From a virus (lineage: Duplodnaviria; Caudoviricetes): a stretch of 64,000 nt of DNA. Both the position numbers and the translations under genes were made by a program. The notes below the pieces were generated by a model. It was not told where the DNA came from and made no database searches. It saw only the letters and a program-made list of their open reading frames with translations. The stretch lies in IMG/VR virus record IMGVR_UViG_3300046167_000724; one strand, 5' to 3'. Below, piece by piece: positions 169 through 55,957 of this stretch (within the stretch, counting starts at the first letter, position 1; each line of letters starts with the position of its first letter).

Positions 169-1683
169 ATGGAGCTAACGTTAACTGAAGATAATCAGTT
201 TTTAAGAATCGATGTTGCCACTGAACTAGAATTAGAACAGTTAAACATTTCGCTTACAAGAAGAATAGACGCATGGCGGTTCAATCCTTTGGTTAAAAAA
301 GGGATATGGGACGGCTATGTTTCTTATGTAAAAGATGATAAATGGATCCCTGCCGGTTTATGGCAGGAGATCACGAAAGTCTGTAAACAATATAAATTCG
401 ATATAAAAATTCACGGTGTTACTAGACTTTTTGATAAGGATATTTCAGCGGAGGGTTTTGAAGAATGGGCTAATGAGTTTTTTGAGGGTCATCCTGATGG
501 TATTAAACCAAGGGACTATCAAATTGAAGCGGCTTATAATATTTTAAAGTTTAGGAGGTCGCTTTCTGAATTAGCAACATCTGCTGGTAAAACACTTATT
601 TCATTTTTAACGGTTGCTTACATGCTTGAAAAAGAGAAGGCTAAGAAGATTCTATTTATTGTACCTAACGTATCACTTGTTGTTCAGGCGTCTGAGGACT
701 TTAGTGAATACAATCATGAAAATAGAGTTAAGATTCTTATTCAACAAATATATTCTGGTCAAAAGATTAAAGAAAACCGTAATATTGTTATTGGTACATA
801 TCAATCACTTGTTAAAAAACCTAAAGAATTCTTTGATGATTTTGAAGCTGTAATTGTTGATGAGACACATAAAGCTAAATCAAATTCAATTAAAACAATC
901 TTACAGAAGTGTAGACATGCTACATATAAATATGGGTTATCGGGTACAATACCTAAAGAAAATTCATTAGATAAGTTAACACTAATGTCACAGACTGGTC
1001 CTCTTATTACTGAGGTTAAAGCCGCATTCCTTCAAAAGGAGGGTCACATTGCTGGTTGTAATGTTAATATTATTGAAATGGATTACGCACCTGAATCAGC
1101 TAAAGAAGCCTTTATGGAATTAGCAACAAATAGGTATGAGTCAAAAGATGTTTTTCCATTAGAACAAAATTATGTTATTAACTCGCCGGGTAGATTAAAC
1201 TTTGTTACTAAAGTTATTTCAAGAATACCAAATAATTCATTGGTTCTATTTCACAGGATTGAACATGGTAAAAGACTTTATGAAGAATTAAGACAGCGTT
1301 CAAATAAGCGTGTGTATTATGTTGACGGCGGTACAAATACAGATATCCGTGAAGAGTATAAAGCAAAAATGGAAGCCGGTGATGAGGTTGTTATCGTTGC
1401 ATCATATGGTACTTTTTCAACCGGTATTTCTATTAAAAAAATACATAACATTTTCTTTACAGAATCCTTCAAGTCTGAAGTGATAATTAGACAGTCAATT
1501 GGTAGGGGTTTAAGGCAACATGAATCTAAAGATTCTGTTAATATAATAGACTTTGTTGATGACCTTCGATTTGATGAATGGCATAACTATCTATATAGGC
1601 ATGGTGTTGCTAGAAAGAAGATATACAAGCAAGAAAAGTTCAGTTATAAAGTCAAAAAAGTTAAATTTGAAGGAGATATATAA
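169..1683 (+). CDS. uvsW: SF2 DNA helicase UvsW
   Basis: PRDYQ, LATSAGKT (Walker A), IVDETH (DExH), SLSGT, QSIGRGLR motifs; ~500 aa as T4 UvsW. Confidence 0.92.
   Translation: MELTLTEDNQFLRIDVATELELEQLNISLTRRIDAWRFNPLVKKGIWDGYVSYVKDDKWIPAGLWQEITKVCKQYKFDIKIHGVTRLFDKDISAEGFEEWANEFFEGHPDGIKPRDYQIEAAYNILKFRRSLSELATSAGKTLISFLTVAYMLEKEKAKKILFIVPNVSLVVQASEDFSEYNHENRVKILIQQIYSGQKIKENRNIVIGTYQSLVKKPKEFFDDFEAVIVDETHKAKSNSIKTILQKCRHATYKYGLSGTIPKENSLDKLTLMSQTGPLITEVKAAFLQKEGHIAGCNVNIIEMDYAPESAKEAFMELATNRYESKDVFPLEQNYVINSPGRLNFVTKVISRIPNNSLVLFHRIEHGKRLYEELRQRSNKRVYYVDGGTNTDIREEYKAKMEAGDEVVIVASYGTFSTGISIKKIHNIFFTESFKSEVIIRQSIGRGLRQHESKDSVNIIDFVDDLRFDEWHNYLYRHGVARKKIYKQEKFSYKVKKVKFEGDI
1675..1682 (+). promoter_or_regulatory. 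Late-type promoter motif GATATATA
   Basis: Recurring octamer upstream of virion genes. Confidence 0.6.
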
Positions 1684-1724: not shown

Positions 1725-4064
1725 ATGAAAAAGATTGAATCATTTAAAAGTTTTTCTCAATTACAAAATCAAATCAGAGAAGAGGCTAGATTAAAAGAAG
1801 TTGCATCTAAAAGAGACGCTACAGTTTCTGAGTTTAACGCTCTTTTACAAAAGTACAATGCGGCATCAGTTGCAGACTTAAACGAAGAAGATAGAGACGC
1901 ATTCATGGCTGAACTTACCAAAGAAGGTAATGCTTTCGGTGCAGCAAGAGCAGAGGCTATTGCAAAGGGTGAAGAAGAGTTTAAGGTTGGCGACGAAGAA
2001 ATGCCGGTTAAGAATGTAGATAAAGAAGACGAAGAAAACGCTGAAGAGTTTGTTAAAGAGTCAACTACAATTATTGAAGAAGGTACTAGAGGTCAATTCG
2101 GTAAAATCTATAAGAATGGCGAAATCGCTTCTGTATACACACACTATGATTCTTATCCTGAGAACATGATTCCACTTATTAAGAAGGGTTATAAAAAAGG
2201 CACTGATGTTGATGCAGTTCTTGGTAAAGGTGGTAATTCAGGTCTAGAAGTTTCTCCAGATAAAATGAAGTTTTATGGCGATGCGGATAGCATGACTCCA
2301 ATGAAAGGTAACATTAAAAATCTTAATAAGTATATTAAAGATGCTGACCGTAATGGTGGTGCAGAGTATATCTACTTATTTGACGAAAGAGATCAAAATT
2401 GGTACATGATTGACATATATGGTGATAAAGAATTAGTACCGGCATTTGAATCAGTAGTTACTGAAGGCAAGCACGACGAGATGCTAGATAAAGTTGCAGA
2501 TGCTGTAAAAAATGCATCAAACTTTATGAACGTTGGTATTGCACTTAAAGATGCAGGTATCAAGTACGATTTTTCAACAGGTATGATGCCAATCTATAGG
2601 TTGAAAAAATACCCTATTGCTATTGTAAATAAAAAGTATGTTGACGATGCAGATAGAGAAGTAGGTGACATTGCAATTGGTGTAATGGAATCACTTACTG
2701 AATCGCTAATCACTGAAGCACTAGAAGGTAGAAGCCAGAAAGAAGCGATGAAAGGTTATGCTGCAATTCATAAGTTTATGATGGCACACCCTGGATTTGC
2801 TAGCAAAACAGTTTCAGACCAAACAGTTGCTTGGACAATGAAAGAAGCTCTTAAGGCTGCACTTATAGACGCAAACTTCCATACAGAAGCTAAGTCAGTT
2901 GGTAAAGCTATTAACTTTGCAAACTTTCAAGCACCAACTGTTTTTGTAAACGAACTGGGCGGTATGCCAATCCAAATCAGTAAAAAAATGATGATGGATA
3001 AAGTATATGAGCTAGCTACAGAAATTACAAGAGGTGCAAAATATAATGGTTTTGCTATTATTGAAGCTGTTGCAATGTTCTTTGATGATTCATTCCCTAA
3101 GAATTCTTCTGCATCAAATCTAAGAGATGTACTTGCTAAATTTATGGGTGAAGCTGTAGAAGCTAATAATCTAGAGCAAAGAATTAATGAAGGTTCAGCG
3201 TTTAATTCGGCAAGACTAAAAGCTATTGCTGACGATAAAGATGAATTTGAATTTGATGGTAAAACTTATCCAGTAAAATCTGTTGATAAGGAAGATGAAG
3301 AACTTGCTGATGATTTAGTAGGTGAAGGTAATGCATTTAGCACTGCTAGGTTAAAGGCTATTGAAGCTGGTGAAAAGGAGTTTGAATTTGATGGTAAGAC
3401 TTATCCAGTAAAGTCAGTTGACAAAGAAGATGAAGAACTTGCTGATGATTTAGTAGGTGAAAGTAACAAAACCATAGATGCTAGCACATTTGGCGATGAC
3501 AAATTACGTTATGATGATCAATTTAGAGGTGCTACTGGTCTTGCTAAAACATTAGCAAGCGAATTAGGATTTGATCCAAAAAAGCCTTGGACTGAAGGTA
3601 TTGGTTTTGATGATATTGAAATGTATGCTATCGGTAAAAAAGAAGGAACTATTTCAAGAAACGCACTATCAGGTAAATATACGTATGCTGATCTTTTAGC
3701 AATGGCTAAAGATTTTTTAGGAATCAATGAATCAGAAGATAAAGAAGCTGCTGATGATGTAGTCGATGAGTCTAGATACGATGATATAAAACTTAAAGAA
3801 TTTGCAGAATTTATCAAAAAAGCTGAAGGTAAAAGAGTTATGCTAACAACAACTGAATTTGATGGTACATCTAAGGTTGAGGGTAGGCTTCAAAAAAGTT
3901 CATCAGGTTATCATAAAATTGATTACATGAGCTTTGATTTTAAAGATGAAATGGATACTATCAAAAAGGGTGACGGCATGATTATGGGTGTTAGGGTTGG
4001 CGAATTCCTTAAGTACAATATCGGTGGTAAAAACGGTTCTCAATTTTTAATTGAAGTACTATAA
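1725..4064 (+). CDS. Modular putative internal head protein (polyprotein-like, many I/L/V-x-E sites, three EGNAF...VDKEDEE repeats)
   Basis: Late motif upstream; N-terminal IESFKSF; acidic linkers IIEE/G, VVTE/G, LITE/A, RINE/G, GINE/S separating distinct domains. Confidence 0.6.
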   Translation: MKKIESFKSFSQLQNQIREEARLKEVASKRDATVSEFNALLQKYNAASVADLNEEDRDAFMAELTKEGNAFGAARAEAIAKGEEEFKVGDEEMPVKNVDKEDEENAEEFVKESTTIIEEGTRGQFGKIYKNGEIASVYTHYDSYPENMIPLIKKGYKKGTDVDAVLGKGGNSGLEVSPDKMKFYGDADSMTPMKGNIKNLNKYIKDADRNGGAEYIYLFDERDQNWYMIDIYGDKELVPAFESVVTEGKHDEMLDKVADAVKNASNFMNVGIALKDAGIKYDFSTGMMPIYRLKKYPIAIVNKKYVDDADREVGDIAIGVMESLTESLITEALEGRSQKEAMKGYAAIHKFMMAHPGFASKTVSDQTVAWTMKEALKAALIDANFHTEAKSVGKAINFANFQAPTVFVNELGGMPIQISKKMMMDKVYELATEITRGAKYNGFAIIEAVAMFFDDSFPKNSSASNLRDVLAKFMGEAVEANNLEQRINEGSAFNSARLKAIADDKDEFEFDGKTYPVKSVDKEDEELADDLVGEGNAFSTARLKAIEAGEKEFEFDGKTYPVKSVDKEDEELADDLVGESNKTIDASTFGDDKLRYDDQFRGATGLAKTLASELGFDPKKPWTEGIGFDDIEMYAIGKKEGTISRNALSGKYTYADLLAMAKDFLGINESEDKEAADDVVDESRYDDIKLKEFAEFIKKAEGKRVMLTTTEFDGTSKVEGRLQKSSSGYHKIDYMSFDFKDEMDTIKKGDGMIMGVRVGEFLKYNIGGKNGSQFLIEVL
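3189..3458 (+). repeat. Tandem 135-bp (45 aa) duplication; third diverged copy near 1923-2057
   Basis: EGSAFNSARLKAI...DLVG followed by EGNAFSTARLKAI...DLVG. Confidence 0.9.
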
Positions 4065-4091
4065 AAAAGTTTAAAAAAGTTTGACATATAT

Positions 4092-4121
4092 TTTTTTATG
4101 TCATTCTTTTTTTGTATATTA
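4092..4121 (+). promoter_or_regulatory. Early/host-type promoter motif TGTC-N12-TATATTA
   Basis: Same spacing also at 40703-40725 and 59440-59462. Confidence 0.5.
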
Positions 4122-4126
4122 GAAGT

Positions 4127-4432
4127 ATGAAAAGGGTAAAACTATTCGAAAGCTTTATTAACGAGGCAGGAATCTTTAGAACTTACAATGAGCTTGTTGG
4201 TTATGAATACAAGAAGTTTGTAGATGCTTTTAAGAAGCTCCACCCTGATAATATAGTTACATATGATAAAAAGAATGATGTTGATTATGGTCACCGTAAA
4301 GGCTCCACAGAAGCACTTTGGAAATACTTTCATGATGAAGGTAGAATTCACCACTCTGAAAAAGACAGAGACGTACTTGGTCTAATCAATGCATTTGACA
4401 TGGTTAAAAGAAACCACCCTTGGTCAAAATAA
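4127..4432 (+). CDS. Putative internal head protein (N-terminal MKRVKLFESFINE)
   Basis: ATG at 4127 preferred over 4112; capsid-targeting-like N-terminus. Confidence 0.6.
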   Translation: MKRVKLFESFINEAGIFRTYNELVGYEYKKFVDAFKKLHPDNIVTYDKKNDVDYGHRKGSTEALWKYFHDEGRIHHSEKDRDVLGLINAFDMVKRNHPWSK

Positions 4433-4453
4433 AACAAACATTCAAATGAAAAA
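4402..4453 (+). repeat. 52-bp direct repeat (1 mismatch), copy 2 at 4747-4798
   Basis: GGTTAAAAGAAACCACCCTTGGTCAAAATAAAACAAACATT identical for 41 bp in both copies. Confidence 0.95.
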
Positions 4454-4721
4454 TATAAAATTATTTAACGAGTTTGCTGAACCAACAACTGACGAGTCTA
4501 TTATAAATTCACAAATTGAAGAGAAAAAAGCAGACGGTACAATCTCTGACGATGAGGATGAGAGAAGAGCTGAATTACTTAAAAGAGTAAAAGAGCAAAT
4601 GGAAGAACTTTTAGCTTCAGCAGAATTCGATGCTAACGATATTGGCGGTTCTTTTAGAGCACCTGGTATTATGGCTAAAATCAGAAAAGAACTAGAAGGT
4701 CAAATTAAAAAGTTTAGATAA
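4446..4721 (+). CDS. Putative internal head protein (MKNIKLFNEFAE)
   Basis: ATG at 4446 inside ORF 4389-4721; capsid-targeting-like N-terminus. Confidence 0.6.
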   Translation: MKNIKLFNEFAEPTTDESIINSQIEEKKADGTISDDEDERRAELLKRVKEQMEELLASAEFDANDIGGSFRAPGIMAKIRKELEGQIKKFR

Positions 4722-4722
4722 T

Positions 4723-4752
4723 ATGAAGCTTCTTGTTTCTTTTAACGGTTAA
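4723..4752 (+). pseudogene. Truncated relic start (MKLLVSFNG*) resembling the start of 5431-6723
   Basis: TAATATGAAGCTTCTTGTTTCTTTTAACG vs TAATATGAACAAGCTACTTATTTCTTTTAACG at 5427-5458. Confidence 0.6.
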
Positions 4753-4790
4753 AAGAAACCACCCTTGGTCAAAATAAAACAAACATTTAA

Positions 4791-5429
4791 ATGAAAAAAG
4801 TAAGATTATACGAAAGCTTCCACGGTATTGATGAAGCTTCAAGAGGTACAATTCACAAAGCAGTAAAAGCTGGTGATTATCCCGTAACTATTGTTGTTAT
4901 TGAAAACGGTAAAGTAGTACACCAAGAAATTGTAGATACACCACAAGCTGTACCCGCATCATTTAACGTTCTTCAGAAAGAATACCCAAAAGCAAAGCTT
5001 CATGTTGAGGACAAAGGCGGTCAAACACTTTTTGTAGAAGGTATTGAATCAGCAATTACAGAGTTTGTAAATGAATCAGACGTAATGAACTCGTATTATT
5101 TTACTAGTCCTAGTGAATTTGGTCAATTTTCATCAGAGGCCCCGGCTAAAGGTGAAACTAAATATTTAGTAATGGCTAATAATAAAGCAGACTTTAATGG
5201 TCAAACTATTAAATTAGAAGGTGGTATTAGAATGGGATCTGCGACTAGCCAAAAGGTTATAGGTGTTTATGGTGATGAGCAGTCTGCAAAAGACGCCTAT
5301 GAAGCTGCAATGAAAAAACCAGAAGGAACTATGGTTTCTTTCACAATGGGAACAGTTGTTGGCGAAACTAAATTTAGATCTCAATATACTGAAATCGAAG
5401 GGTATTTAGCAAAAGTTAAATTAAAATAA
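4791..5429 (+). CDS. Putative two-module internal head protein (MKKVRLYESF; IDE/A, ITE/FVNE/S linkers)
   Basis: Capsid-targeting-like N-terminus and internal x-x-E linker. Confidence 0.55.
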   Translation: MKKVRLYESFHGIDEASRGTIHKAVKAGDYPVTIVVIENGKVVHQEIVDTPQAVPASFNVLQKEYPKAKLHVEDKGGQTLFVEGIESAITEFVNESDVMNSYYFTSPSEFGQFSSEAPAKGETKYLVMANNKADFNGQTIKLEGGIRMGSATSQKVIGVYGDEQSAKDAYEAAMKKPEGTMVSFTMGTVVGETKFRSQYTEIEGYLAKVKLK

Positions 5430-5430
5430 T

Positions 5431-6723
5431 ATGAACAAGCTACTTATTTCTTTTAACGAGTTTCTTTTAGAGAAGGCTTATAACTCTTATGATTCAGATC
5501 TAATCCTTGAAGGTGGTGCAGCTGGTCACATGATGCACCCGTTCGATGATAAAGCACTAACGTTTGATGACTTTAGAAAGTTTATCACAGCGGGTCTCCA
5601 AGGTGAAATGACTTTTGATGAAGAGCCAACAGAAAAGACTGACGGCCAAAACGTGTTTGCCACGGTTAAAGATGGTAAAGTAATGTTTGCTAGAAACAAG
5701 GGTCAAATGCAAAACCCTATTGACCTAGCAGGTATTACTCAAATGTTTGCCGACCATCCATCTGAGTTGGTTAGAGACACATTTACATTCGCAGCTCAAG
5801 ACTTAGCGTCAACACTTACAAAGCTGTCAGCTAATGACCAAATTAAGTACTTTAACGACGGTAAGAACTTCATGAACATGGAGCTTATCTATTCAAAAAA
5901 CCCTAACGTTATTAATTACGACAGAGATGTTATTCAATTCCACGGTATCAAAGAGACTGATGGTGAAGGTAATATTATTGGTGATATGGGTGCAAGATCG
6001 GCTAAAGATATTGCTAAGCTACTTGATGCTGTAAATGCAAAAACAGGTAAAGTGTTCAACATTATTCCACCTCAAGTACTTAAGCTTCGTAAAGATGTAG
6101 ACTTTGATGACAGGTTGCCGTACTTTATGAAAAAGATTGATGCGCTTCAAACACAATATAAATTAGCCGGTCATGATGAGGTTTCAAGATACCATGAAAT
6201 GTGGTGGAGAGACGAGATTGAAAAGTCTTTTGGTGACCTATCACAAGATATTAAAGAAGGCTTATTATTAAGATGGGCATATGACGATAAGAAAACTCTT
6301 AACATGAGACAGGTTGCTAAGCAGATTACACCAGAACAAATGGAGTTTCTTAGAAAATACGACAAGGTAGACGTTAAGAAAAAGTACAAAGAAAACATTA
6401 GACCGTTCGAAGACTTGTTCTTAGAGTTTGGTTCAATTGTACTTAAGAACGCTTCGAACTTTGTTGCAGCGTCACCAGATGCCGAAATGCAAAGACTACA
6501 TAATGAAATTAGAACAGAAGCCGCTAAGATTAAAAAAGGTGGTTCAGTAGACCAGATTATTAAGGTTGAAGCTGAGCTGGCAAGGTTAGATAGAATTGGT
6601 GGTATTGAGTCAATTATTCCAACTGAAGGCTTAGTGTTCAAATATAATGGTAAAATATATAAGTTAACGGGTACTTTTGCAGCGATTAATCAGCTGTTAG
6701 GTATTATTAAATACGGTAGATAA
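5431..6723 (+). CDS. RNA-ligase-like covalent nucleotidyltransferase-superfamily protein
   Basis: Motif I TEKTDGQ (K69), candidate III E151, IIIa F170, IV EGLVF (E399), V YKL (K411); long insert between IIIa and IV. Confidence 0.55.
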   Translation: MNKLLISFNEFLLEKAYNSYDSDLILEGGAAGHMMHPFDDKALTFDDFRKFITAGLQGEMTFDEEPTEKTDGQNVFATVKDGKVMFARNKGQMQNPIDLAGITQMFADHPSELVRDTFTFAAQDLASTLTKLSANDQIKYFNDGKNFMNMELIYSKNPNVINYDRDVIQFHGIKETDGEGNIIGDMGARSAKDIAKLLDAVNAKTGKVFNIIPPQVLKLRKDVDFDDRLPYFMKKIDALQTQYKLAGHDEVSRYHEMWWRDEIEKSFGDLSQDIKEGLLLRWAYDDKKTLNMRQVAKQITPEQMEFLRKYDKVDVKKKYKENIRPFEDLFLEFGSIVLKNASNFVAASPDAEMQRLHNEIRTEAAKIKKGGSVDQIIKVEAELARLDRIGGIESIIPTEGLVFKYNGKIYKLTGTFAAINQLLGIIKYGR

Positions 6724-6729
6724 ACTAAT

Positions 6730-8568
6730 ATGGCACTTCAAAAGCTAAGAGATTATTTTAAAGAAACACCAAGAGAACAGTTTATGCAACTATTAAACCA
6801 AAAGGTTCATGTTGTAGAAAAACTAGCGGCTTCAGCATTTCATGTAAAGTCTGGTGATTTAAAAAATAATTATTATAAATCAGGACAAACTCAACCTATT
6901 GATATTATTGATAGAACGATTGTAGGTTTTTACGAACCTGCAATTTTGCATTTTAAAGGTTTGTCTAATGAAATTAAAGAAGAGATGCCAAAAGATTGGA
7001 AGTTTGGTTTTGATTATTTAATTGATGGTGAAACACCTAACTTTGAATATTCGCTACTTCCAAAAAACAATTTAGTACTTACACATATTCAAGTGCTAAA
7101 TCCACTAACAGAAAATGTTAAGAAAGTCATTAGAGATACTCAAGTACTTAATAAGTGGGCTGATAAACTAGAGGTTCAAAGACCCCCAGTTGTATTTGAA
7201 GGTCAATTAAGATTTGATCAGAAAGAATCTTTAATTAAACTTCTTGAAATGACAGACCGTGAATTTACAACAACATATGAGTCTCGTTCATTTACAAAAG
7301 ATTTATTTAACATATTTGATACAAACGTTAGAAACTCAACACTTCAAGAAGGTTTAGATACCGATATTGACGGTCTTATAATTTCTTTTGTAGATGGTAA
7401 AAAAATGACGCCATTTAAAATTGAAGATTTTAGAAGAGTTAATGAATCAAATACAGAAAGAAAGTCATCCGATATTTACCAGATTACAATTGTTGATTTA
7501 ATTGAGTATTTATCAAATTATGATTTTAAAAAGCATAGTTTAATTAAAGAGAAAAAAGACCGTAGATTTTTAGAGCTTATGTCTGAAGTATTTAATTCTT
7601 ATATTAAAGAACACGCTACTAAATTTATTGGGGTTAACTTTGAAACCGCTGATTTTGCAAAAAAAGATGCGTTTAAGTTAAACACTGAATTTATTGAAAA
7701 TCAACAAACTCTTAAACTTATCGATAATAAAATTTTAAGTGAACTTTTTAAAATTACATTAAGCTCATTTAGAAGAGAAAGAACAAAAACTACAGATATT
7801 TTGTCTGAAGATATGGTTAATCAAATGAATGAGATTGTTAAATCTATTGACGACCACGTATCTGCAAAAATAGAAGAAGGTGATGTGTTAGATTTTAATA
7901 CTTATAAAAAGATGGATACAATTAATTCATCAATGAATGAAGCCCTTAAAGTAGATTATCCAGAACAAGGCAATAAACTTGTTAATATGTTTGTTGGTAG
8001 ATTCCAACCATTTACATTAGGTCATGCTAAAGTTGTTAAAGCAATTCACCAACAAAACGGTTATCCAGTTGTAATCTTATTAGTTAAGTCTAAGACGAAA
8101 AAGAAAGAAGATGCTTTCAAACGTCCTTATGATGAAGACACTCAATTAGATATGCTTAACAAACTTAAGAGAGAACTTCCAATTGAAGACGTATTTATTA
8201 TACCGACGGGTGGTATTGATACAATGTTTAATGCAATGAGACCCAAGTACGAGCCGGTTTTATGGGGTACGGGTTCTGATAGAATGAAAACATATGGCTT
8301 CCAGGTTAATAATGATCAATATAGAGAAGACTTAGGAGTTAGAGATGATTTTAAACTTTTTGAAATTCCAAGAACTGGTAAAAACATTTCAGCTACTCAA
8401 GTTAGGAATGCTATGTTAGACGGTGACGTGAAGCTATTTAAAAAATTAACGCCAAGGGGTATTCATGGAATGTATGACGAATTAAAGTCAAGACTTGAAG
8501 CTTCTATGGCAGTTGCTGAGAATGTTGAAACTATTTTAACATTTGAACAATTTATTTCTAATATATAA
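6730..8568 (+). CDS. Degenerate ligase-like domain fused to HIGH-superfamily nucleotidyltransferase (cytidylyltransferase/NMNAT-like)
   Basis: N-terminal VVEKLAAS and IDGLII; C-terminal GRFQPFTLGH and ISATQVR. Confidence 0.65.
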   Translation: MALQKLRDYFKETPREQFMQLLNQKVHVVEKLAASAFHVKSGDLKNNYYKSGQTQPIDIIDRTIVGFYEPAILHFKGLSNEIKEEMPKDWKFGFDYLIDGETPNFEYSLLPKNNLVLTHIQVLNPLTENVKKVIRDTQVLNKWADKLEVQRPPVVFEGQLRFDQKESLIKLLEMTDREFTTTYESRSFTKDLFNIFDTNVRNSTLQEGLDTDIDGLIISFVDGKKMTPFKIEDFRRVNESNTERKSSDIYQITIVDLIEYLSNYDFKKHSLIKEKKDRRFLELMSEVFNSYIKEHATKFIGVNFETADFAKKDAFKLNTEFIENQQTLKLIDNKILSELFKITLSSFRRERTKTTDILSEDMVNQMNEIVKSIDDHVSAKIEEGDVLDFNTYKKMDTINSSMNEALKVDYPEQGNKLVNMFVGRFQPFTLGHAKVVKAIHQQNGYPVVILLVKSKTKKKEDAFKRPYDEDTQLDMLNKLKRELPIEDVFIIPTGGIDTMFNAMRPKYEPVLWGTGSDRMKTYGFQVNNDQYREDLGVRDDFKLFEIPRTGKNISATQVRNAMLDGDVKLFKKLTPRGIHGMYDELKSRLEASMAVAENVETILTFEQFISNI

Positions 8569-8588
8569 TAAAATACAATTATAGTAAG

Positions 8589-11114
8589 ATGTTTGAATCT
8601 TTTAACAATTTTATAAATAACAGCATGCCTTTAAACGAAGGTATGTTTTCATTTAAAACTTTAGGTGATAATAAAGCAATTAGCGCAATGTCAGGTGCTG
8701 ATATTTACATGTTTGACGATAAAGGAAACAAATGGCATGAAGAAGACTATGAAGGTTACGGCCTCTTTGGTGGTAAAGACTTTTTTGAGTTAATGGCTGA
8801 AATGAATGGTGAAACAGGTAGAGATGCAGGTATTGACCTTTATTTCGGTAATGATAAAAAAGTTTTGTACCCGGCATTAACAAGAGACAAAAATTTTAAC
8901 TGGAAAAGACACAAGTTTACTACTAAAATAAAGTCAGACCCTAAGCAAGGTGCTTTCTCTGAATCAGTGATTAATGAGGCTAAATCAATCGCTAAGATTC
9001 AAAAAGAATGGGCTAAAGTTACAGCTATGATGAAAGATACAGTCGCATCATATAAAGAAGCTGAAGGTAAAGACAAAGAAGATTTATTAGACCAGCTTAA
9101 AGTTTTAACAATTTCTAAAAAGAAACTTGAGGTTGAATTAGATGATGCAGTCGGTATTAAAGACATGGACGTTGAACTAGCAGAATCTTCAGTTATTACA
9201 GAGTCACTTAAACCACGTGATATTAAAGTGGGTAGAGGATTTAAAATCGGCGATGACATTTTTAAAATTATTGAAATTAAAAAAGACAAACGTTTTGGTG
9301 ATATCGCAAATACAGAACGTATTGACCATATATCCGGTAAAAAATACACTTATAGAGATACGGTTAAAGACCTTGTAGATTTCTTTAATGAGGAGGGTGC
9401 GGTTGCAGAAGGTATGGAATTTACTATTACTGATGTAATTAATGAGTCATTAAACAAAAGACACGTTACACTAAAAAGAAAATATACTGAAAATTATCCA
9501 GCGATTACTGCAGGTAAATCAGCAAGAATCAGAAATAAAATGCTTGAGGCGATTGCTGACGGTAAAATTACACAAGAAGAATTCGACACTATCTTAAAAG
9601 AAATGTCAATAGATACTAAGAGATGGTCAAAAAGAAATACAAAATATTTTAACGTATCAGAAGACGGTGTGTCACTTTCTAAGTTTGGTAGAAGAATCCT
9701 TAATCAAATTACAATTAATGAAGCAGAGTCTATGATTAATGAAAAAAGAGAGAACTGGATTGTTTATACGGGCGAAGTTCAAAAGAAATTTTATTCAGAA
9801 CACACAGGTAGAAAGTCTGCTGAAAAAATGGTAAATATGGCTATGAGAGTTTTGAATCAAGTAGGTATGATGCCAAAAAGTTTGTGGGAAAAAGAAGAAG
9901 AAGAAGGTTTTGTTGTAGAAGACACTGTATTCATATATGAATCATTTAAAGTTTTTGAAGCTAATAGTGTTAACGAATCAGCGTTTGTAGTATGGTATGA
10001 AGATAAAGAGGGCAAGCACATTTTAGGCACGTTCCATAATAAGAGAGCTGCTGACAAGTACAAGAAAGAAGAAGAAGACGAGGTGCTTAACACTGTAGGT
10101 GTTGAAAGCATTGGTACTATGTCTAGGAAGATGTGGGATAAAAACGAAGCACCTTACATCAAAGAGTCAATTGACCTTAACGAAGCATTTGCTTCTTCTA
10201 AGCTGAGAAACCTTTTAACAATGAGAGGTGCTGATGGTAGCGCTATTAAAAATTTAGCTAGAGCTTTTTACGGTTTAACTAAATACAAATTAGACGAACT
10301 GCCAGATGCTGCATTAAGAGATGTTGACCCTAAAACAGCATACAAGTCGTATCAAAAAGATAATGAATTTGCGGTATTCTATATTGTAGATAATGAAAAA
10401 GGAAACCCATATGGTGATAGAGGCTGGGGTCGTAAAATTGAACCAGGTATTATCGCAATCACAAGAGGTAAAGAATTCTTAGGTGCAACACACGATACTA
10501 AAAAAACACCTTCAACACTTACGACAGCTGCATTAGACAGCGCTGTTGGTGGTGATAAAAGATATTCAGGTTACGGTGCTACAGGCATTTACAATGTAAA
10601 GAGAGCTGCTGAGCTTGCAGATAGAGCTATCGTTGTATGGCTAAATAACGACGCATTCAAATCAACTGATAAGATTGAGCAAAGAGCAGACGCTAAAGCA
10701 GGTGCAATCGCGTTCACGTCAGATAAAGAATTTAAGGCAACTAACATGGCTAGATATAAAGAAATTTTAGCATCAAACGCAGCAAAGCTTCCACTAGACA
10801 AAATAGTTGAATCAGCTATCGAAGAGCTAACTAAGCAAATTGCACAAGCACTTAAAGACAATAACGCCAGCAAATATGATGGTATCCTTATCGGCACGAG
10901 CCCTAGAGGTCGTGAAGTAACTATTAAGGATGCTGGTCAGCACATGTCAAATATCCTTGACGATTACTCAAGATATTCATCTTACATGAAAAATTCAGAT
11001 GAAGAAAGAGCTAGCGGTTACTCTTCAGGTTTCTACGAAAAAGAAGCAAAGAATTACGCTAAGAGAGTAACTGACGGAGCTAAGAAAATTAAAAAGATGG
11101 ATTACGCTTGGTAA
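8589..11114 (+). CDS. Modular putative internal head polyprotein (about 7 domains separated by I/L/V-N/T-E sites)
   Basis: MFESFNNF start; PLNE/G, VINE/A, VITE/S, VINE/S, MINE/K, SVNE/S, DLNE/A linkers. Confidence 0.6.
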   Translation: MFESFNNFINNSMPLNEGMFSFKTLGDNKAISAMSGADIYMFDDKGNKWHEEDYEGYGLFGGKDFFELMAEMNGETGRDAGIDLYFGNDKKVLYPALTRDKNFNWKRHKFTTKIKSDPKQGAFSESVINEAKSIAKIQKEWAKVTAMMKDTVASYKEAEGKDKEDLLDQLKVLTISKKKLEVELDDAVGIKDMDVELAESSVITESLKPRDIKVGRGFKIGDDIFKIIEIKKDKRFGDIANTERIDHISGKKYTYRDTVKDLVDFFNEEGAVAEGMEFTITDVINESLNKRHVTLKRKYTENYPAITAGKSARIRNKMLEAIADGKITQEEFDTILKEMSIDTKRWSKRNTKYFNVSEDGVSLSKFGRRILNQITINEAESMINEKRENWIVYTGEVQKKFYSEHTGRKSAEKMVNMAMRVLNQVGMMPKSLWEKEEEEGFVVEDTVFIYESFKVFEANSVNESAFVVWYEDKEGKHILGTFHNKRAADKYKKEEEDEVLNTVGVESIGTMSRKMWDKNEAPYIKESIDLNEAFASSKLRNLLTMRGADGSAIKNLARAFYGLTKYKLDELPDAALRDVDPKTAYKSYQKDNEFAVFYIVDNEKGNPYGDRGWGRKIEPGIIAITRGKEFLGATHDTKKTPSTLTTAALDSAVGGDKRYSGYGATGIYNVKRAAELADRAIVVWLNNDAFKSTDKIEQRADAKAGAIAFTSDKEFKATNMARYKEILASNAAKLPLDKIVESAIEELTKQIAQALKDNNASKYDGILIGTSPRGREVTIKDAGQHMSNILDDYSRYSSYMKNSDEERASGYSSGFYEKEAKNYAKRVTDGAKKIKKMDYAW

Positions 11115-11126
11115 TCAAATTTAATT

Positions 11127-11813
11127 ATGCCATCACAAAGTAAATCACAACAAAGACTAATGGGAGTAGCATACGCAGTTAAATCTGGTGATATGCAACT
11201 TTCTGATGTAGATGCTTCTTATAAAGATAAGGTTAAAGAGCTTGTTGATAGCATGTCTCTTAAAGACCTTAAAGACTTTGCTGAGACGGATCACAGTGGT
11301 TTACCAGAAGAAGTAACTGAGGGTGTTATGAAAATTGACTTACGTAAAATTTTAACTAGGCTTTCAGGCGCTATTGGCTATAAGCATGACCCTAAGATGC
11401 GTCAAGAATTATTATCAGCATTTGAAGAAGACCTTAAAGAAATTATGGCTAAACACAATTATATTGTTGAATATGAAACAATCGAAGAAGATTTATCAGC
11501 TACTACACCAGGTAATCTCGGTGGTATGGGTGATGTTTCTCTACCCAATGGAGATGCCGTCGGTTCAGGCGATGTCCCAGCAGGTTCTGGTAAAGCTAAA
11601 AAGAAAAAGAAGCTTAAAAACATTGAAGATTTTTTACAAGAACAAGAACAATTAAAATCATTTAAACCTGAACAGGGTAAAGGTGAAGCACTTGGTGAAG
11701 GTGAATATGAAAACGGTTCTGCAGTTTCTCCAGAACAAGAAATGGAACAACGTGCTAACGCACATAGAGTTGCAAAAAATGTAATAACATTTGACGCATT
11801 TTCAAAAAGATAA
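11127..11813 (+). CDS. Protein with DUF3008-like N-terminal domain, acidic linkers and C-terminal ITFDAF motif
   Basis: MPSQSKSQQRLMGVAYAVKSG...SMSLKDLKDFAET resembles the MPAKSKAQQ-type DUF3008 domain. Confidence 0.5.
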   Translation: MPSQSKSQQRLMGVAYAVKSGDMQLSDVDASYKDKVKELVDSMSLKDLKDFAETDHSGLPEEVTEGVMKIDLRKILTRLSGAIGYKHDPKMRQELLSAFEEDLKEIMAKHNYIVEYETIEEDLSATTPGNLGGMGDVSLPNGDAVGSGDVPAGSGKAKKKKKLKNIEDFLQEQEQLKSFKPEQGKGEALGEGEYENGSAVSPEQEMEQRANAHRVAKNVITFDAFSKR

Positions 11814-11838: not shown

Positions 11839-11894
11839 TCCACCGGTAGTCCCGGTGGACCAAAGGTCTAGAGCAATCTAGGCCTTTTCTTTTT
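11839..11894 (+). terminator. Double hairpin plus U-tract (intrinsic terminator)
   Basis: TCCACCGG-tagtc-CCGGTGGA then AGGTCTAGA-GCAA-TCTAGGCCT-TTTCTTTT. Confidence 0.8.
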
Positions 11895-11922
11895 GAAACA
11901 AATACCATTAAGTGCATATAAA
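11895..11922 (+). promoter_or_regulatory. Middle-type promoter GAAACA-N16-TATAAA
   Basis: One of 11 copies with 16-17 nt spacing. Confidence 0.75.
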
Positions 11923-22774: not shown

Positions 22775-23063
22775 TGAAGACTCAACGCCTATAAAATACA
22801 TCTTAGGCATTGAGAAAGACTTACCTGGATATCCTGAACCAATGGACATATTGTACCATACAATAGAACTTGCGGTCAGGAATCCCAAAAGATATAAAGG
22901 AACCTTTACAAGACACCATTGTGTGACGTATTGGTTTAAAGATGTTGATGAATCTATTGTTGATGAATCAATAAACAAGTTAACACAATCAGGTCATGTA
23001 CTACAAACAAACACAGACCCTGGAAAAGAATCATATAAAGTAATTATAAATCCATTTGAATGA
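22758..23063 (+). CDS. Hypothetical protein
   Basis: ORF with overlapping start/stop. Confidence 0.6.
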   Translation: MILTINEDSTPIKYILGIEKDLPGYPEPMDILYHTIELAVRNPKRYKGTFTRHHCVTYWFKDVDESIVDESINKLTQSGHVLQTNTDPGKESYKVIINPFE

Positions 23064-29067: not shown

Positions 29068-29832
29068 ATGAATCTTTCACCAGTTAAAATTATTAACGAA
29101 AACGAAATTGAATTTTACCTACATGGTAAATCATTCACTGTAAACACTACTGAAAATACTGTAGTTGAAAACGAAACTATTTCAAAAGAACTTCACACAT
29201 TAGCATGGGCTGTTGAAAACTTCCAGTTCATTGAAGATAAAATTGTATGGCATAAAGGTATACACAAAATGTGGTACAATATTACTGAAGCGAAATTCTA
29301 TATGGGTAATACTGAAGTTTTAGATGAAGGTTTTGTTAACTTCATTATGGCTGCTGGTATTATTAGATACAATGAAAAGCCAGTTGCTGAAGCATTTGTA
29401 TATGCTGCAAATAATGCTGAATCATTTGTTAATTTAGACTTTGTTAAAACAGTTAATGAAAATGGTAACCTAATTGATGTTATGAAGTTTGGCGAAAACA
29501 TTTATATTTCTAGAATTAATGAAGCTGCTAAAATCTATAATTTCTTTAAGGCAAACACTGCAAATGCTGCAGTTGAGTATGTTAATGAAAAGACTAATGT
29601 AAACATCACTGAATTTGTTGCTGAATTAGTTGAAGGCGAATTAACTGAATATGTTGATGCACTTGATGAAATTGCAAAGAAGCAAGAAATCATTACATTC
29701 TTAAAAGATCAAAGAAACAGATTAGCTGAAGCTGATAAATCAATTGAAGAAATCAATGCAGCAGACGCACTTATTGAAAGTGAGATTGCTAAATTTGAAA
29801 CTGAAATTAAAGAATTAAAAGCTACGCTATAA
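29068..29832 (+). CDS. Late hypothetical protein with C-terminal coiled coil
   Basis: ORF under late motif. Confidence 0.7.
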   Translation: MNLSPVKIINENEIEFYLHGKSFTVNTTENTVVENETISKELHTLAWAVENFQFIEDKIVWHKGIHKMWYNITEAKFYMGNTEVLDEGFVNFIMAAGIIRYNEKPVAEAFVYAANNAESFVNLDFVKTVNENGNLIDVMKFGENIYISRINEAAKIYNFFKANTANAAVEYVNEKTNVNITEFVAELVEGELTEYVDALDEIAKKQEIITFLKDQRNRLAEADKSIEEINAADALIESEIAKFETEIKELKATL

Positions 29833-30089
29833 TGCAATCTAAATTTATTAAAACATTTGAGCAATTTGTAATAAACGAAGAAGAAATCTCAAGATCAACT
29901 GGTTATGTACCGGGTTCTTTGAAAAAAGAATTTGAAAATTTACCAGCGGGTACTAAAGTATCTATTGACGCTTTGAATTATTCTCAATCTGCAAACGATG
30001 ACCTTGTTATTTGTTTTACCGACTCTAACGAAAATATGTTAAGAGTCCCTAAATCAAAACTAGTGCTGGAGGACGGCGAAGGCATTTAA
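29832..30089 (+). CDS. Putative internal head protein (KTFEQFVINE)
   Basis: Capsid-targeting-like N-terminus. Confidence 0.55.
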   Translation: MQSKFIKTFEQFVINEEEISRSTGYVPGSLKKEFENLPAGTKVSIDALNYSQSANDDLVICFTDSNENMLRVPKSKLVLEDGEGI

Positions 30090-33329: not shown

Positions 33330-33662
33330 ATGATTATAAAAACATTTGAACAGTTTATAGCTATTAAAGAAGATGCTATTAATGCAGGACCAGAGTCTGA
33401 GGTTGTAATTGATGATATGATTACAACTAATGGTACTGAAATTTCTGCAGAAGAAATCTTAGGTATTGTTGTATCTTCAGATAACGAAAAACAGGTTGAA
33501 ACTAAAATTCGTGAAAAGTATGGTGAGCTAGCATTTTCTACAGAAGACATATCTATTATTAAAAAATACTGGAATGACTATTCAGCTGAAAACAAAGAAA
33601 AAGAGTTAGAGGCTGAAAAAGAAGCAGAGGGCGGTGAAGAAGACCCAATGGCGGGTATTTAA
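33330..33662 (+). CDS. Small acidic prohead core-like protein (MIIKTFEQF)
   Basis: Position between portal and protease like T4 gp67/68; ATG 33330 inside track ORF 33234. Confidence 0.55.
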   Translation: MIIKTFEQFIAIKEDAINAGPESEVVIDDMITTNGTEISAEEILGIVVSSDNEKQVETKIREKYGELAFSTEDISIIKKYWNDYSAENKEKELEAEKEAEGGEEDPMAGI

Positions 33663-33725: not shown

Positions 33726-35924
33726 ATGAATTATAATAATCTATTAATACTTGAAAGATCATCAAGTACTCTAATCGCTGACGAAAAGTCTGGCAATTAT
33801 GTACTAGAGGGTATCTTCGGTGAGATCGATAAGAAAAACAAAAACAATCGTATCTATACTGAAGGTGAATATGTACCTCAAATTGAAGCTCTTCAAGAAA
33901 AAATTAAGTCATCAAAACTTCTAGGTGAATTAGATCACCCTGCTAAGTTTGATGTATCATTAAAGAATGTATCGCACATTATCGAAGAATTATATTACGA
34001 TAGCGATCTTAAACAAGTTAAGGGTAAAATCAGATTACTAGATACAGATGCTGGCCGTCAGGCTAAAGCACTTGTAGATGCTGGTGTACCTTTACAAATA
34101 TCTTCTAGAGCTGCTGGTGAAGTTAGTGAGGGTGGTCAAGTTAAAATTAAACAATTATTCACTTATGATTTAGTTGCTGACCCGGGTTTCGCGAATGCTG
34201 AGCTTAATAGAGTTAACGAATCTTTTGGATTCGAGTCAGACAGTAACATTCAAATCTTTGAGATGATGCCTGAAACTCTGGTTACAGAAACTGAAAATAT
34301 CAAAACTGAAAATAATACAAATAATACAACATCAATCATGGAAAATCAAGCTAGATTTGTAAGTGTTGAAGACTTTAACAAGTACTCTACGTACTTAGCT
34401 GAAGAAATCAAAGCACTTAAAGAATCTCTTGCAGGTACTTCTACTGAAGATATTGAAGAGAAAATGGAAGCGCTTACAAATTATGTAGAGCACGTTGCTG
34501 AAAAAGCAGACCAGGGCATTCAATACACTGAGTACATTGCAGAGAACCTAGATAAGTCAATCGACTATTCTAACTATGTTGCTGAAAAATTAGATAATTC
34601 TATTTCTTATTCAGAGCACGTTGCAGAAGCTGCGTCAAACGTTAAGGAATACGCCAATTATTTAGCAGAAGCAATGAACGAAGGTGCTGCTGATTACGAA
34701 AACGTAACAAAGTACTTAAACTATTTAAAAGAAAATGTAGAGTCTGTATCTGAGTATGCTGACTACATTGCTGAAACAATCAACACTAACCTAATTGTTG
34801 AAACTGAAGTTGCAAACGACGGTGACGATGTTACGGGCACTGAAGCTGACGACCTTAAGTCTGATGCTAAAGAAGTAAACAATGATGTTAATGCACCTGA
34901 AGACAAGTCTGCAGAATTAGAAGCTGACTTAGCTAAAGATGCGGCGCCATCTAAAGTGGTTGTTGAAGCTGATATTAAAGCAAACGACGGTGACGATGTT
35001 ACGGGTGTTGAAGCAGATGACCTTAAGTCTGATGCTAAAGAGATTAACAATGATGTTAATGCACCTGAAGACAAGTCTGCAGAATTAGAAGCTGACTTAG
35101 CTAAAGATGCTGCACCATCTAAAGAAGTAGTTGAATCTGAAGAAGCTGAAGAAGAAGTTGCTGAAGAAGTTGCTGAAGAAGAAACTGAAGAAGTAGTTGA
35201 ATCTGAAGAAGCTGAAGAAGCTGAAGAAGAAGTTGCTGAAGAAGAAACTGAAGAAGTAGTTGAATCTGAAGAAGCTGAAGAAGAAGTTGCTGAAGAAGAA
35301 ACTGAAGAAGAAGTTGAAGAAGAAGCAGTTGAAGAATCATGTGATGCATGTGGCGCAAACCCATGTGAGTGTGCTTCTGAATCGGTTGATGCTGTAGAAG
35401 CATACAAAAACGAAATTTCTGAAAAGCTTTCTGCTTTAATTAACAAAGCAACTGTTAAAGAAAATAATAACCCACACTTCTTCAAACTAGTATCTGAAGC
35501 AACTCAAGAAAAGTATAACGCTTTAGAAGAAGCTGACAAGTCTAAAGTACTTGCAACAGTTGAAGGTAGAGGTTACTTAACTGAAGGCCAAATTAATACT
35601 TTAATGGAATCTGCTTTAGTAGAGGTTGCTGGTCAAACTGCACCTTATTTTGTTGAAGCAATGCCATCTGAGTACAAAGAGACTTGGTCTAAACTATCAG
35701 AGGCTAAGAAATCAGTGATTTCTGCTCAAGCTAGAATGGTTAAGCTAACGACACCATACCAAGTTAAAAACTTCTGGGACACAAGAGACCTAAGAGAAAC
35801 ATCAGCGGTAATGGAAAGAGTTGAAATGATTACTGAAGCTAAGAAAATCGAAGCTCCTAAATCAACGCTAACGTATAACACTGATGGTATTGGTGAGGCT
35901 TTAGCAAAAAGATTTAAAAAATAA
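33726..35924 (+). CDS. gp21: Prohead protease (gp21-like) fused to scaffold/core (gp22-like)
   Basis: NKNNRIY, GELDHP, ISSRAAG, YDLVADPG in first ~170 aa; long acidic helical remainder. Confidence 0.85.
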   Translation: MNYNNLLILERSSSTLIADEKSGNYVLEGIFGEIDKKNKNNRIYTEGEYVPQIEALQEKIKSSKLLGELDHPAKFDVSLKNVSHIIEELYYDSDLKQVKGKIRLLDTDAGRQAKALVDAGVPLQISSRAAGEVSEGGQVKIKQLFTYDLVADPGFANAELNRVNESFGFESDSNIQIFEMMPETLVTETENIKTENNTNNTTSIMENQARFVSVEDFNKYSTYLAEEIKALKESLAGTSTEDIEEKMEALTNYVEHVAEKADQGIQYTEYIAENLDKSIDYSNYVAEKLDNSISYSEHVAEAASNVKEYANYLAEAMNEGAADYENVTKYLNYLKENVESVSEYADYIAETINTNLIVETEVANDGDDVTGTEADDLKSDAKEVNNDVNAPEDKSAELEADLAKDAAPSKVVVEADIKANDGDDVTGVEADDLKSDAKEINNDVNAPEDKSAELEADLAKDAAPSKEVVESEEAEEEVAEEVAEEETEEVVESEEAEEAEEEVAEEETEEVVESEEAEEEVAEEETEEEVEEEAVEESCDACGANPCECASESVDAVEAYKNEISEKLSALINKATVKENNNPHFFKLVSEATQEKYNALEEADKSKVLATVEGRGYLTEGQINTLMESALVEVAGQTAPYFVEAMPSEYKETWSKLSEAKKSVISAQARMVKLTTPYQVKNFWDTRDLRETSAVMERVEMITEAKKIEAPKSTLTYNTDGIGEALAKRFKK
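34812..35335 (+). repeat. 168-bp tandem duplication followed by Glu-rich repeats in scaffold domain
   Basis: ANDGDDVTG...KDAAPSK twice; ESEEAEEEVAEE(E) units. Confidence 0.9.
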
Positions 35925-43087: not shown

Positions 43088-43513
43088 ATGTTGGATTTAT
43101 TTAAGAATTTTGGTAAAAGAGAGGCTCTAGTTTATATTGTAGTTTTTCTTTGGGTTATTGGTGGTGTGTATGGTGCTATAAAAGGTGTTGATTTTGTACA
43201 ATTAGCATCTTATTTTGGCTCATTAACGGCTTATGTCGCAACTTACATATGGGCTGAAACCAAAAAACCTTCACAAAAAACAAGCATTCTTAAAAGAGGT
43301 AAATCATCTAGGAGGGAAATCATGATATATCTTGTGGTTCTTTTATGGGTGATTGCAGGTGCATTTGGTATTTATTATATGGCAAATTTAACTAGTTTAT
43401 CGATTTACTTTATTTCGTTATCTGGTTTTATTGCCTCTTGGATTGCTGGTGAAGTTTATAAACCACAAGACGATATTAAAAAAGATATAACTGACGTAGA
43501 TTACGGTGGTTAA
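43088..43513 (+). CDS. Four-TM membrane protein built from two homologous halves (holin candidate)
   Basis: KREALVYIVVFLW...AETKKP vs RREIMIYLVVLLW...GEVYKP. Confidence 0.55.
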   Translation: MLDLFKNFGKREALVYIVVFLWVIGGVYGAIKGVDFVQLASYFGSLTAYVATYIWAETKKPSQKTSILKRGKSSRREIMIYLVVLLWVIAGAFGIYYMANLTSLSIYFISLSGFIASWIAGEVYKPQDDIKKDITDVDYGG

Positions 43514-55871: not shown

Positions 55872-55883
55872 CAACTAATATAC

Positions 55884-55949: not shown

Positions 55950-55957
55950 AGATTATT

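Follow-up and report, generated by a model that had tools for sequence, protein, structure and literature searches.

The IMG/VR record IMGVR_UViG_3300046167_000724 provides a stretch of 64,000 nucleotides of viral DNA, here termed the window, which PHROG and Pfam scans assign to a distant T4-type phage. The window encodes T4-type homologues of the UvsW helicase (169-1683), the gp4 head closure protein, the gp2 DNA end protector and the gp20 portal (31712-33313), a gp3-like tail sheath stabiliser and a gp55-like late sigma factor, and its T4-type head module comprises the portal, a gp23 major capsid protein and a Peptidase_S77 protease that is fused to the scaffold. Downstream of the UvsW gene, at 1725-11813, lies a cassette encoding proteins A to H, each of which bears at one end a short motif, hereafter the tag, resembling the capsid targeting sequence (CTS) that directs internal proteins into the T4 head. 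Three further proteins, I, J and K, display the tag outside the cassette (Table 1).

Table 1. Tagged genes, head-module genes and associated sequence elements of the window (aa, amino acids; nt, nucleotides; pI, isoelectric point)
Feature	Position	Strand	Description
GATATATA octamer	1675..1682	+	Candidate late promoter element, 43 nt before the first cassette gene
Protein A	1725..4064	+	779 aa, acidic; N-terminal tag, then a module chain that includes a 45-aa unit three times
Protein B	4127..4432	+	101 aa, pI 9.1; tag with exact T4 spacing
Direct repeat, copy 1	4402..4464	+	3' end of B, intergenic DNA and start of a tag; 94% identical to 4747-4809
Protein C	4446..4721	+	91 aa, tagged; inserted gene
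Mini-ORF (open reading frame)	4723..4749	+	MKLLVSFNG, then a stop; nine codons; truncated E-type tag at the insertion joint
Direct repeat, copy 2	4747..4809	+	63 nt; pairs with 4402..4464
Protein D	4791..5429	+	212 aa, tagged; two modules joined at ITE/VNE (around residues 90-97)
Protein E	5431..6723	+	430 aa; tag, then a predicted RNA-ligase-like adenylyltransferase
Protein F	6730..8568	+	612 aa; N-terminal domain with a ligase-motif-I-like sequence, HIGH nucleotidyltransferase, tag-like C-terminal end
Protein G	8589..11114	+	841 aa, tagged; module chain with seven [IL]NE sites and a conserved C-terminal domain
Protein H	11127..11813	+	228 aa; DUF3008 N-terminus (Pfam 3.2e-11); tag-like C-terminal end VITFDAFSKR (11781-11810)
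Hairpin and T run	11862..11897	+	Terminator-like; after H, closing the cassette
Protein I	29832..30089	+	85 aa, tagged; just upstream of the gp55-like late sigma factor gene
Protein J	33330..33662	+	110 aa, acidic, tagged; between portal and protease, as are T4 gp67/gp68
Protease-scaffold	33726..35924	+	732 aa; prohead protease fused to scaffold; Peptidase_S77 (PF03420) 9.6e-13, PDB 5JBL 1.5e-5
Scaffold repeats	34383..34775	+	Residues 220-350; eight Yxx[YH][ILV]AE units
Major capsid protein	36068..37534	+	gp23 family (Pfam Gp23 1.2e-43); N-terminal LINE, IIE and LYE sites
Protein K	37651..39177	+	508 aa, acidic, charged, tagged; candidate core/scaffold protein; GATATATA lies 39 nt upstream

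A sequence-only reading of the window had quoted nine strings as T4-like leaders. All nine are real and were located at the N-termini of ORFs, three of them (4127, 4446 and 33330) requiring a start other than that of the longest ORF. Within the cassette the leaders are MKKIESFKSF...IRE (1725-1781) in A; MKRVKLFESFINE (4127-4165) in B, whose true start is the ATG at 4127 within a TTG-initiated ORF that opens at 4112; MKNIKLFNEFAE in C, from an ATG internal to the ORF starting at 4389; MKKVRLYESFHGIDE in D; MNKLLISFNEFLLE (5431-5472) in E; and MFESFNNFINNSMPLNE in G. Those outside the cassette are MQSKFIKTFEQFVINE in I, MIIKTFEQFIAIKE in J, which starts at an ATG inside the ORF that begins at 33234, and MKIKLNEALKSFDMFINE in K. 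The aromatic pair [FY]xxF is present in 9/9 leaders, and in 8/9 an [IL]-x-Glu sequence stands at or soon after the pair, C (F-A-E) being the exception; the Glu falls no more than three residues past the second aromatic in B, C, E and K. Alignment of 157 distinct tags from the lineage on the first aromatic residue gives the consensus M-K-K-[ILV]-K-[LST]-[FY]-E-x-F-[ILV]-N-E, in which positions that the search pattern leaves free are also conserved (Lys at -5 in 66% of tags, Ile, Leu, Val or Met at -3 in 92%, and Glu at +1 in 52%).

The frequency of the motif was assessed over the 66 proteins (18,969 amino acids) of the window, with expectations derived from its rate inside proteins. In nine proteins [FY]xxF, followed within 12 residues by [IL]xE, begins within the first 13 residues, against 0.57 expected (Poisson P ~1e-8), and the a priori T4-like pattern [FY]xxF[ILVA]x(0-2)E is found in six against 0.19. 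Of 753 distinct ORFs on related contigs, 93 have [FY]xxF[ILV]xE beginning within their first 13 residues, where 1.8 are expected, many of the 93 being orthologues and hence non-independent. Two other N-termini, those of a 2OG-Fe(II) oxygenase (23060-23632, MIAVFDDFLDQEMLNE) and of a small hydrophobic protein (43088-43513, MLDLFKNF), match the loose form of the tag pattern and are probably coincidental. These data bear on the view that the common N-termini are functionless, the result of chance or a leftover of duplication. The adjacency of B, C and D, and the 63-nt repeat shared by C and D, which includes the first codons of the tag, would suit such an origin. The enrichment, 16-fold in the window and ~50-fold in the lineage, argues against it, as does the dissimilarity of the protein bodies: an all-versus-all BLASTP comparison without the first 22 residues found no match between tagged proteins better than E = 0.03, which bears out the earlier statement that these proteins are unrelated. 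In addition, the motif is retained across capsid-protein identities of 30-96% while its flanks drift; the aromatics and the Glu are kept as other tag positions change, exemplified by B, where they are invariant in five orthologues and the intervening positions vary. The explanation was already disfavoured and we find it barely credible.

In the T4 record NC_000866, ipII and ipIII start MKTYQEFIAE and ipI starts MKTFKEF...ITE. The first ten residues of IPIII are enough for packaging, residues 4 and 7 mediating targeting and residues 8 and 10 processing, while gp21 cleaves after L/I-x-E, and Alt undergoes C-terminal trimming as well (PMC9026906). The leaders described here keep all four of these positions, the aromatics (at the places of IPIII Tyr4 and Phe7) and the [ILV]-x-E (at those of Ile8 and Glu10), in agreement with the T4-like CTS that had been proposed for them. 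Spacing is exactly that of T4 in B (FESFINE), E (FNEFLLE) and K (FDMFINE), is one residue longer in I, and is exact in 66/157 tags across the lineage. In sequence terms, the tag is the T4 CTS (MKTYQEFIAE) preceded by three extra residues. The T4-type setting that this equation presupposes is also present in the genome, as the gp21-family protease possesses His71 and Ser126 that align with the catalytic His85 and Ser140 of T4 gp21.

The tag is N-terminal in six of the cassette genes, while 6730-8568 (F) and 11127-11813 (H) carry the motif at the C-terminus instead; with these two copies included, it is found at one end of every gene between 1725 and 11813. Protein F ends in ILTFEQFISNI (8533-8565) and displays no N-terminal tag. 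The signature TFxxF[IL]xN[IG] ends every F homologue listed, down to 52% identity (a conservation read from the listed C-termini, the column count being blurred by overlapping F-x-x-F matches), and is preceded by a variable linker that itself follows an [LVM]-x-E site. The corresponding motif of H is kept in relative L003 (TTFSNFTKNR) and in the uncultured phage LR756500 (IKTFNEFKTEYK). Protein H contains a further element of interest. Its residues 110-149 (11454-11573) match residues 38-82 of the major capsid protein (36179-36313) with 48% identity over 48 columns (pairwise E 2e-5). The common motif, E-x-[NL]-[ST]-x-x-x-P-x-x-x-x-GMG-x-[VI]-[SV]-LP...GSGD, stands just past the LYE site in the capsid protein, and it opens or sits within at least 20 otherwise different proteins of relatives, often immediately behind a tag or xxE site. 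By mimicking the N-terminal stretch of the capsid protein, the motif may provide a second means of anchoring proteins to the head.

The core of the tag recurs in the scaffold. Units of the form Yxx[YH][ILV]AE start at residues 220, 253, 267, 281, 295, 309, 330 and 344 of the protease-scaffold, five of the eight lying in strict 14-residue register, where 0.2 copies are expected. The array and its tyrosines are kept in all relatives, down to 29% identity, the tyrosines being invariant, and the unit YTEYIAE is close to the YQEFIAE of T4. The tag thus resembles a single unit of the scaffold, in which its core recurs with a 14-residue period. Since the internal [ILV]NE joints of the tagged proteins, described below, occur without the aromatic pair, it can be argued that the aromatics serve assembly rather than cutting. 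Co-folding of scaffold residues 205-365 with the first 40 residues of B, carried out without controls, returned a score of 0.01 against a mark of 0.32, a value that speaks neither for nor against an association. Further along the scaffold (34812-35336) a 168-nt unit occurs twice, the copies being 91% identical, together with a long low-complexity run rich in Glu, Ala and Val; these sequences lie between the tyrosine repeats and a C-terminal domain (residues 555-732) that is conserved.

The location and coding of the motif are also informative with respect to the possibility that the leader addresses or controls something other than the head, such as a membrane or compartment, a cytoplasmic enzyme complex, or a Lys-rich, A-rich context for translation starts. 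The genes do begin MKK or MKR in A-rich codons and lack a visible Shine-Dalgarno sequence, and packaging is itself a deduction. What is conserved, however, is two aromatics together with an aliphatic residue and a Glu, and the synonymous codons used for these positions differ; in FESF the serine is AGC in two genes and TCT in a third, and selection thus appears to act on the peptide and not on the RNA. Furthermore, the motif occurs at C-termini and within the scaffold, tracks head genes in relatives, and is part of a leader devoid of the hydrophobic stretch typical of signal peptides. A target outside the head is highly improbable in the light of these features.

The earlier reading had included enzymes among the tagged proteins, and at least one, E, appears to be of this kind. 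Lys69-x-Asp71-Gly72 of E, the motif I (KxDG) that carries the adenylate-accepting lysine in ATP-dependent RNA ligases and related covalent nucleotidyltransferases, is invariant in an alignment of 61 sequences at 32-80% identity. The structural model of E has a mean predicted local distance difference test score (pLDDT) of 90 and presents the tag as a separate, low-confidence helix followed by a disordered linker. The top Foldseek rows for E are all RNA ligases (E 2e-3 to 1e-2), and structural matches comprise NgrRnl, the Naegleria RNA ligase (Z 9.7, root-mean-square deviation (rmsd) 3.6, 184 aa), T4 Rnl1 (Z 8.9, rmsd 3.7, 175 aa) and fungal Trl1 (Z 8.9, rmsd 4.4, 193 aa); Z values of ~8.9-9.7 are moderate. 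A profile of the E family matched only ribosomal protein eS6 among PDB sequences, a hit judged to be spurious, and the ligase assignment consequently rests on the fold and motif I. An Atlas feature search for E yielded only DUF6267, on about a quarter of cluster members. On the strength of the model, E is predicted to be an RNA-ligase-like enzyme.

The E domain is found in 1,840 clusters of the 50%-identity library, usually as the C-terminal portion of far longer proteins that in many cases open with a HIGH nucleotidyltransferase, and in homologues where the stretch could be located the domain is preceded by [IL]-x-x-E-GG. In other phage lineages (proteins P0124-P0270) the ligase domain is C-terminal in proteins of 600-1,900 aa. 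A different, conserved amphipathic leader with [ILV]xE at its end (for example M..LTEWL.KPFL.E or M.LG.WLA..II.E) opens many of them and may serve this enzyme pair as an alternative address tag. The HIGH domain of F (residues 420-560) scores above the cut-off of the Pfam family CTP_transf_like (PF01467, 1.4e-8), and its GRFQPFTLGH sequence fits the (H/T)xGH signature; the nearest solved structures are archaeal nicotinamide mononucleotide adenylyltransferases, at a weak E of 0.008. The N-terminal region of F contains EK[IL]xxSSFHV, which is motif-I-like and reads KLAAS here, with the canonical KIDGS in some relatives.

A different organization is seen in A, D, G and H. The tripeptide [ILV]NE is 4.9-fold enriched in these four proteins (P = 1e-4) and 3.7-fold in core proteins, while E and F together contain one such site. 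Such sites mark the module joints, and in relatives the individual modules are encoded as tagged genes in their own right. Thus, residues 571-674 of A correspond to stand-alone tagged proteins of 104-109 aa, and the C-terminal module of D (93-212) to a separate tagged gene product of 131-138 aa, the N-terminal module of D being fused into the G-family protein P0022. Relatives conserve the N-terminal module of A (~1-246), in each case with a tag of their own and an [IL]xE-EE site, and a KRKYTENYP module that follows VINE inside G comes directly after the N-terminal tag in relatives. By their sequences, A, D, G and H look like chains of modules jointed by protease sites. The three copies of the 45-residue unit in A (1922-2056, 3188-3322 and 3323-3457; GNAFxxAR...EFxFDGKTYPVKxVDKEDEE...V.E) each end in an acidic stretch and a Glu, and the unit has no family match. 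The C-terminal domain of G has at least 291 homologues and belongs to no Pfam family; its model (pLDDT 79) matched only generic helical bundles, from which no function was assigned, and an Atlas feature search for G returned nothing. Searches of Pfam, PHROGs and PDB sequences yielded no informative match for A, B, C, D, G, I, J or K.

The pI of A, J and K is 4.2-4.8, acidic like that of the protease-scaffold, and by analogy with T4 both J and K look like parts of the prohead core or scaffold rather than effectors, the T4 core proteins offering a better analogy for J, K and perhaps A. The end of the portal, ...GEEPEDPMGAMGM (33270-33313), and that of J, ...GGEEDPMAGI (33624-33662), are both kept in relatives and display a common acidic C-terminal motif, EDP[ML]xG[IM].

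The nearest records to the capsid protein are those of the 462-kilobase (kb) uncultured phage LR756500 (49% identity), Lak megaphages and jumbo Tenacibaculum phages, and the head-module DNA has no near-identity match among 50,697 phage records. The G protein of the window is found on a contig of 231,566 bases, which indicates a giant phage of at least 231 kb. Synteny of the cassette extends to contigs that are 82% and 66% identical, and its backbone of UvsW, A, E, F, G and H is conserved in at least 80 related contigs as well as in LR756500. In LR756500, UvsW is followed by tagged genes, E, F, one tagged gene, the gene for the DUF3008 protein and a further tagged gene, in that order. Homologues of F are present on at least 80 viral contigs; the E gene upstream is nearly always led by a tag (for example MKIYTNFTEFLNE), the G-family genes begin M.xF.DFL.E, and small tagged genes between F and G vary from contig to contig. 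In the head region a tagged ORF lies between portal and protease in every relative, additional tagged ORFs stand between the protease and capsid genes or behind the capsid gene in some, and a lineage at 35% protease identity has four directly upstream of the protease. Elsewhere in the window, apparent short ORFs at 55800-57050 resemble RNA genes, probably a transfer RNA (tRNA) cluster as judged without a tRNA scan, and the GC-richer end (61300-64000) contains a repetitive reading frame.

One gene gain has left a trace in the DNA. The gene for C lies between the 63-nt direct repeats, is missing from the 82%-identical relative L002, where D directly follows B, and has no homologue in any related locus examined. 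The mini-ORF at the joint matches the N-terminus of the E orthologue in relatives L003 and L006. On the evidence of these repeats, 4402-4809 is a visible scar of recombination at tag sequences, generated by the insertion of C. Overall, the cassette is, as its gene order in relatives indicates, a stable module of the lineage with variable inserts and not a free-form arsenal. The notion of an expandable set of injected effectors, which the sequence-only reading had put forward, hence survives in part: gene gain and module swaps fit it, while the stable backbone and the core-like nature of the proteins at 33330 and 37651 do not.

These observations need to be considered alongside the proposal that A, D, G, H, J and K serve as accessory components of the core or scaffold, comparable to T4 gp22, gp67 and gp68. 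They would enter the prohead by way of the shared motif, to be cut into small pieces and expelled before DNA packaging, so that nothing functional is injected. The acidity that A, J and K share with the protease-scaffold, the abundance of [ILV]NE sites in A, D, G and H as in core proteins, the position of J in the place of T4 gp67/gp68, the identity of the motif with the scaffold's own repeat unit, and a lineage-wide conservation of the backbone, as expected for structural genes, are all consistent with this proposal. It does not readily accommodate E, a well-folded ligase-like protein with an invariant catalytic motif, as a disposable scaffold needs no enzymes; as E and F have almost no internal [ILV]NE sites, both would survive as whole enzymes. 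The gain of C and the swapping of modules also suit accessory functions better. Although some tagged proteins are probably core parts and not effectors, we regard it as unlikely that the whole set is discarded in this way.

The regulatory signals around the cassette may indicate when it is expressed. The octamer GATATATA occurs 14 times in the window, against 4.1 expected and with 0 of 100 shuffles reaching 14, always on the + strand and 12-92 nt before structural genes, which include the gp3-like gene, the protease, the capsid protein, K, several tail-region genes and A. Its position is kept, at 41-48 nt upstream of the A-family gene in 19/20 relatives and upstream of the protease in 9/11. 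A second promoter-like class, TTGAAAC with TATAATA(G/A)TT ~20 nt further on, is found before 18889, 19322, 21324, 23688, 30238, 39738 and 55453; it precedes replication-type genes and the gp55-like sigma factor gene and is distinct from the GATATATA class. A third element (TTTTTATGTC...CTATATTA) stands before 4127, 40749 and 59505. The cassette looks co-expressed with the head genes on account of the shared, conserved GATATATA, the terminator-like hairpin, and the different element on replication-type genes. It is probable, as far as such signals can indicate, that 1725-11813 is one late transcription unit, which may be switched on with the head genes.

Taken together, the data favour the view, to which we assign a probability of roughly 0.7, that a short peptide at one end directs the cassette products to the prohead core. 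Packaging, cleavage, binding and ejection of the tagged proteins are what we infer from sequence in proposing the following scheme. The leader would form an amphipathic helix that joins, in the prohead core, the scaffold array bearing the same core Y-x-x-[YH]-[ILV]-A-E. The scaffold-tethered gp21-family protease would then cut after Glu, dismantling the scaffold, stripping the tags and severing the modules of A, D, G and H where [ILV]NE sites join them. What stays in the head would be compact products, with E and the C-terminally tagged F remaining whole, and the matured products could exit with the DNA at infection.

A bolder extension of this capsid-address model, which we offer tentatively and consider possible rather than probable, is that the tag is a single copy of the scaffold repeat, that cargo loads as a look-alike helix in the repeat array, and that the attached protease frees it; in combination with the second, capsid-like motif this would constitute a readable loading code. 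The localization of proteins to the T4 core has been described as 'mysterious' (PMC9958956). If correct, the extension would name a concrete receptor for capsid targeting sequences, which is still missing for T4, and would explain how the tag works at either end of a protein. The code could also be used to catalogue what a large, uncultured lineage of marine phages packages, including RNA-ligase and nucleotidyltransferase enzymes that would reach the host ready-made.

Several observations weigh against the capsid-address model or its extension. With respect to cargo, most cassette proteins are acidic or near neutral (pI 4.8-6.5) and B alone is basic, in contrast to T4 internal proteins, which are basic (PMC9026906). 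The motif itself is imperfect in places, as the tag of C is F-A-E, the first [IL]xE of A comes 7 residues past the second aromatic, and the nucleotidyltransferase enzyme F lacks an N-terminal tag. The aromatic repeat of the scaffold was not found in T4 gp21, gp22, gp67 or gp68, or in the PTm1 fusion protein, and the link between tag and scaffold may be specific to this lineage; the likeness could also signify an extended recognition motif of the protease and not binding. No clear tags are seen in the head regions of Lak-A1 or of a cultured relative, Tenacibaculum phage PTm1, the Lak check being a weak one that used the standard code and fragmentary ORFs, and the searches made found no cultured close relative of the lineage. 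On the side of expression, GATATATA is a putative late-gene mark, the T4 late promoter TATAAATA is not enriched in the window (9 matches against 10 expected), and the element upstream of B, which is common to B and 59434, differs from GATATATA.

Should the capsid-address model be correct, the head contents of a widespread uncultured phage lineage would be predictable from sequence alone. These would include RNA-ligase-like and nucleotidyltransferase enzymes that could act in the host ahead of phage gene expression and that might, more speculatively, repair RNA cut by host defence nucleases. The likeness between tag and scaffold repeat also supplies a testable idea for CTS recognition, a standing question in T4, whose tag already loads foreign proteins into heads.

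Among known systems, the giant phages phiKZ and SPN3US provide one parallel, as they too hold many internal head proteins, which gp21-like proteases cleave behind the Glu of a short motif and whose propeptides are thought to direct incorporation (PMC5694885). Those propeptides are mostly longer than 100 residues and do not share one short tag (PMC5694885), and the head genes of the phage described here are closer to T4 than are those of phiKZ and SPN3US. The T4 core proteins gp22, gp67 and gp68 resemble the tagged core-like proteins in being acidic, in possessing several [IL]-x-Glu sites and in being encoded beside the portal and protease genes, where J and K are similarly placed. There is no detectable sequence similarity between the two sets, the T4 proteins are without the aromatic pair, and the scaffold here repeats the tag motif, which gp22, gp67 and gp68 do not. 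A more distant analogy is provided by the cargo-loading peptides of encapsulins, which are short, often C-terminal, and bring enzymes that are unrelated to one another into a shell of the HK97 fold. These peptides make direct contact with the shell protein and are not removed by a protease; the likeness is that of an address label, with no evolutionary link shown.

The closest counterpart is the CTS of T4 IPI, IPII, IPIII and Alt, which gp21 removes (Mullaney and Black 1996, as reported in PMC9026906 and PMC9958956). In both systems a short N-terminal leader with aromatics three residues apart, followed by [IL]-x-Glu, is common to unrelated proteins; a gp21-family serine protease is present, enzymes can be cargo (as is T4 Alt), and processing need not be confined to the N-terminus, as the C-terminus of T4 Alt is trimmed as well. 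The leader described here, by contrast, has three additional residues, with MKK[ILV]K[LST] ahead of the first aromatic; the cargo consists mostly of large and acidic proteins, the motif is C-terminal in two proteins, and several proteins are module chains. The T-even internal proteins are likewise a diverse set that shares just the targeting sequence (PMC3012670), and their loci, as described by Repoila et al. (1994, cited in PMC3012670), resemble the cassette in that only the leader is shared and gene content varies. The cassette differs in its conserved backbone, variation consisting of small inserted genes and swapped modules, with the scar at 4402-4809. Among the titles and abstracts surveyed in the CTS literature, none describes such tags for uncultured or marine T4-related lineages. 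Thus, the principle of diverse cargo loaded through a common tag is already known from the T-even internal proteins (PMC3012670), while the lineage is new, and the features worth testing in it are the C-terminal tags, the module chains with their protease joints, and the construction of the scaffold from the tag motif.

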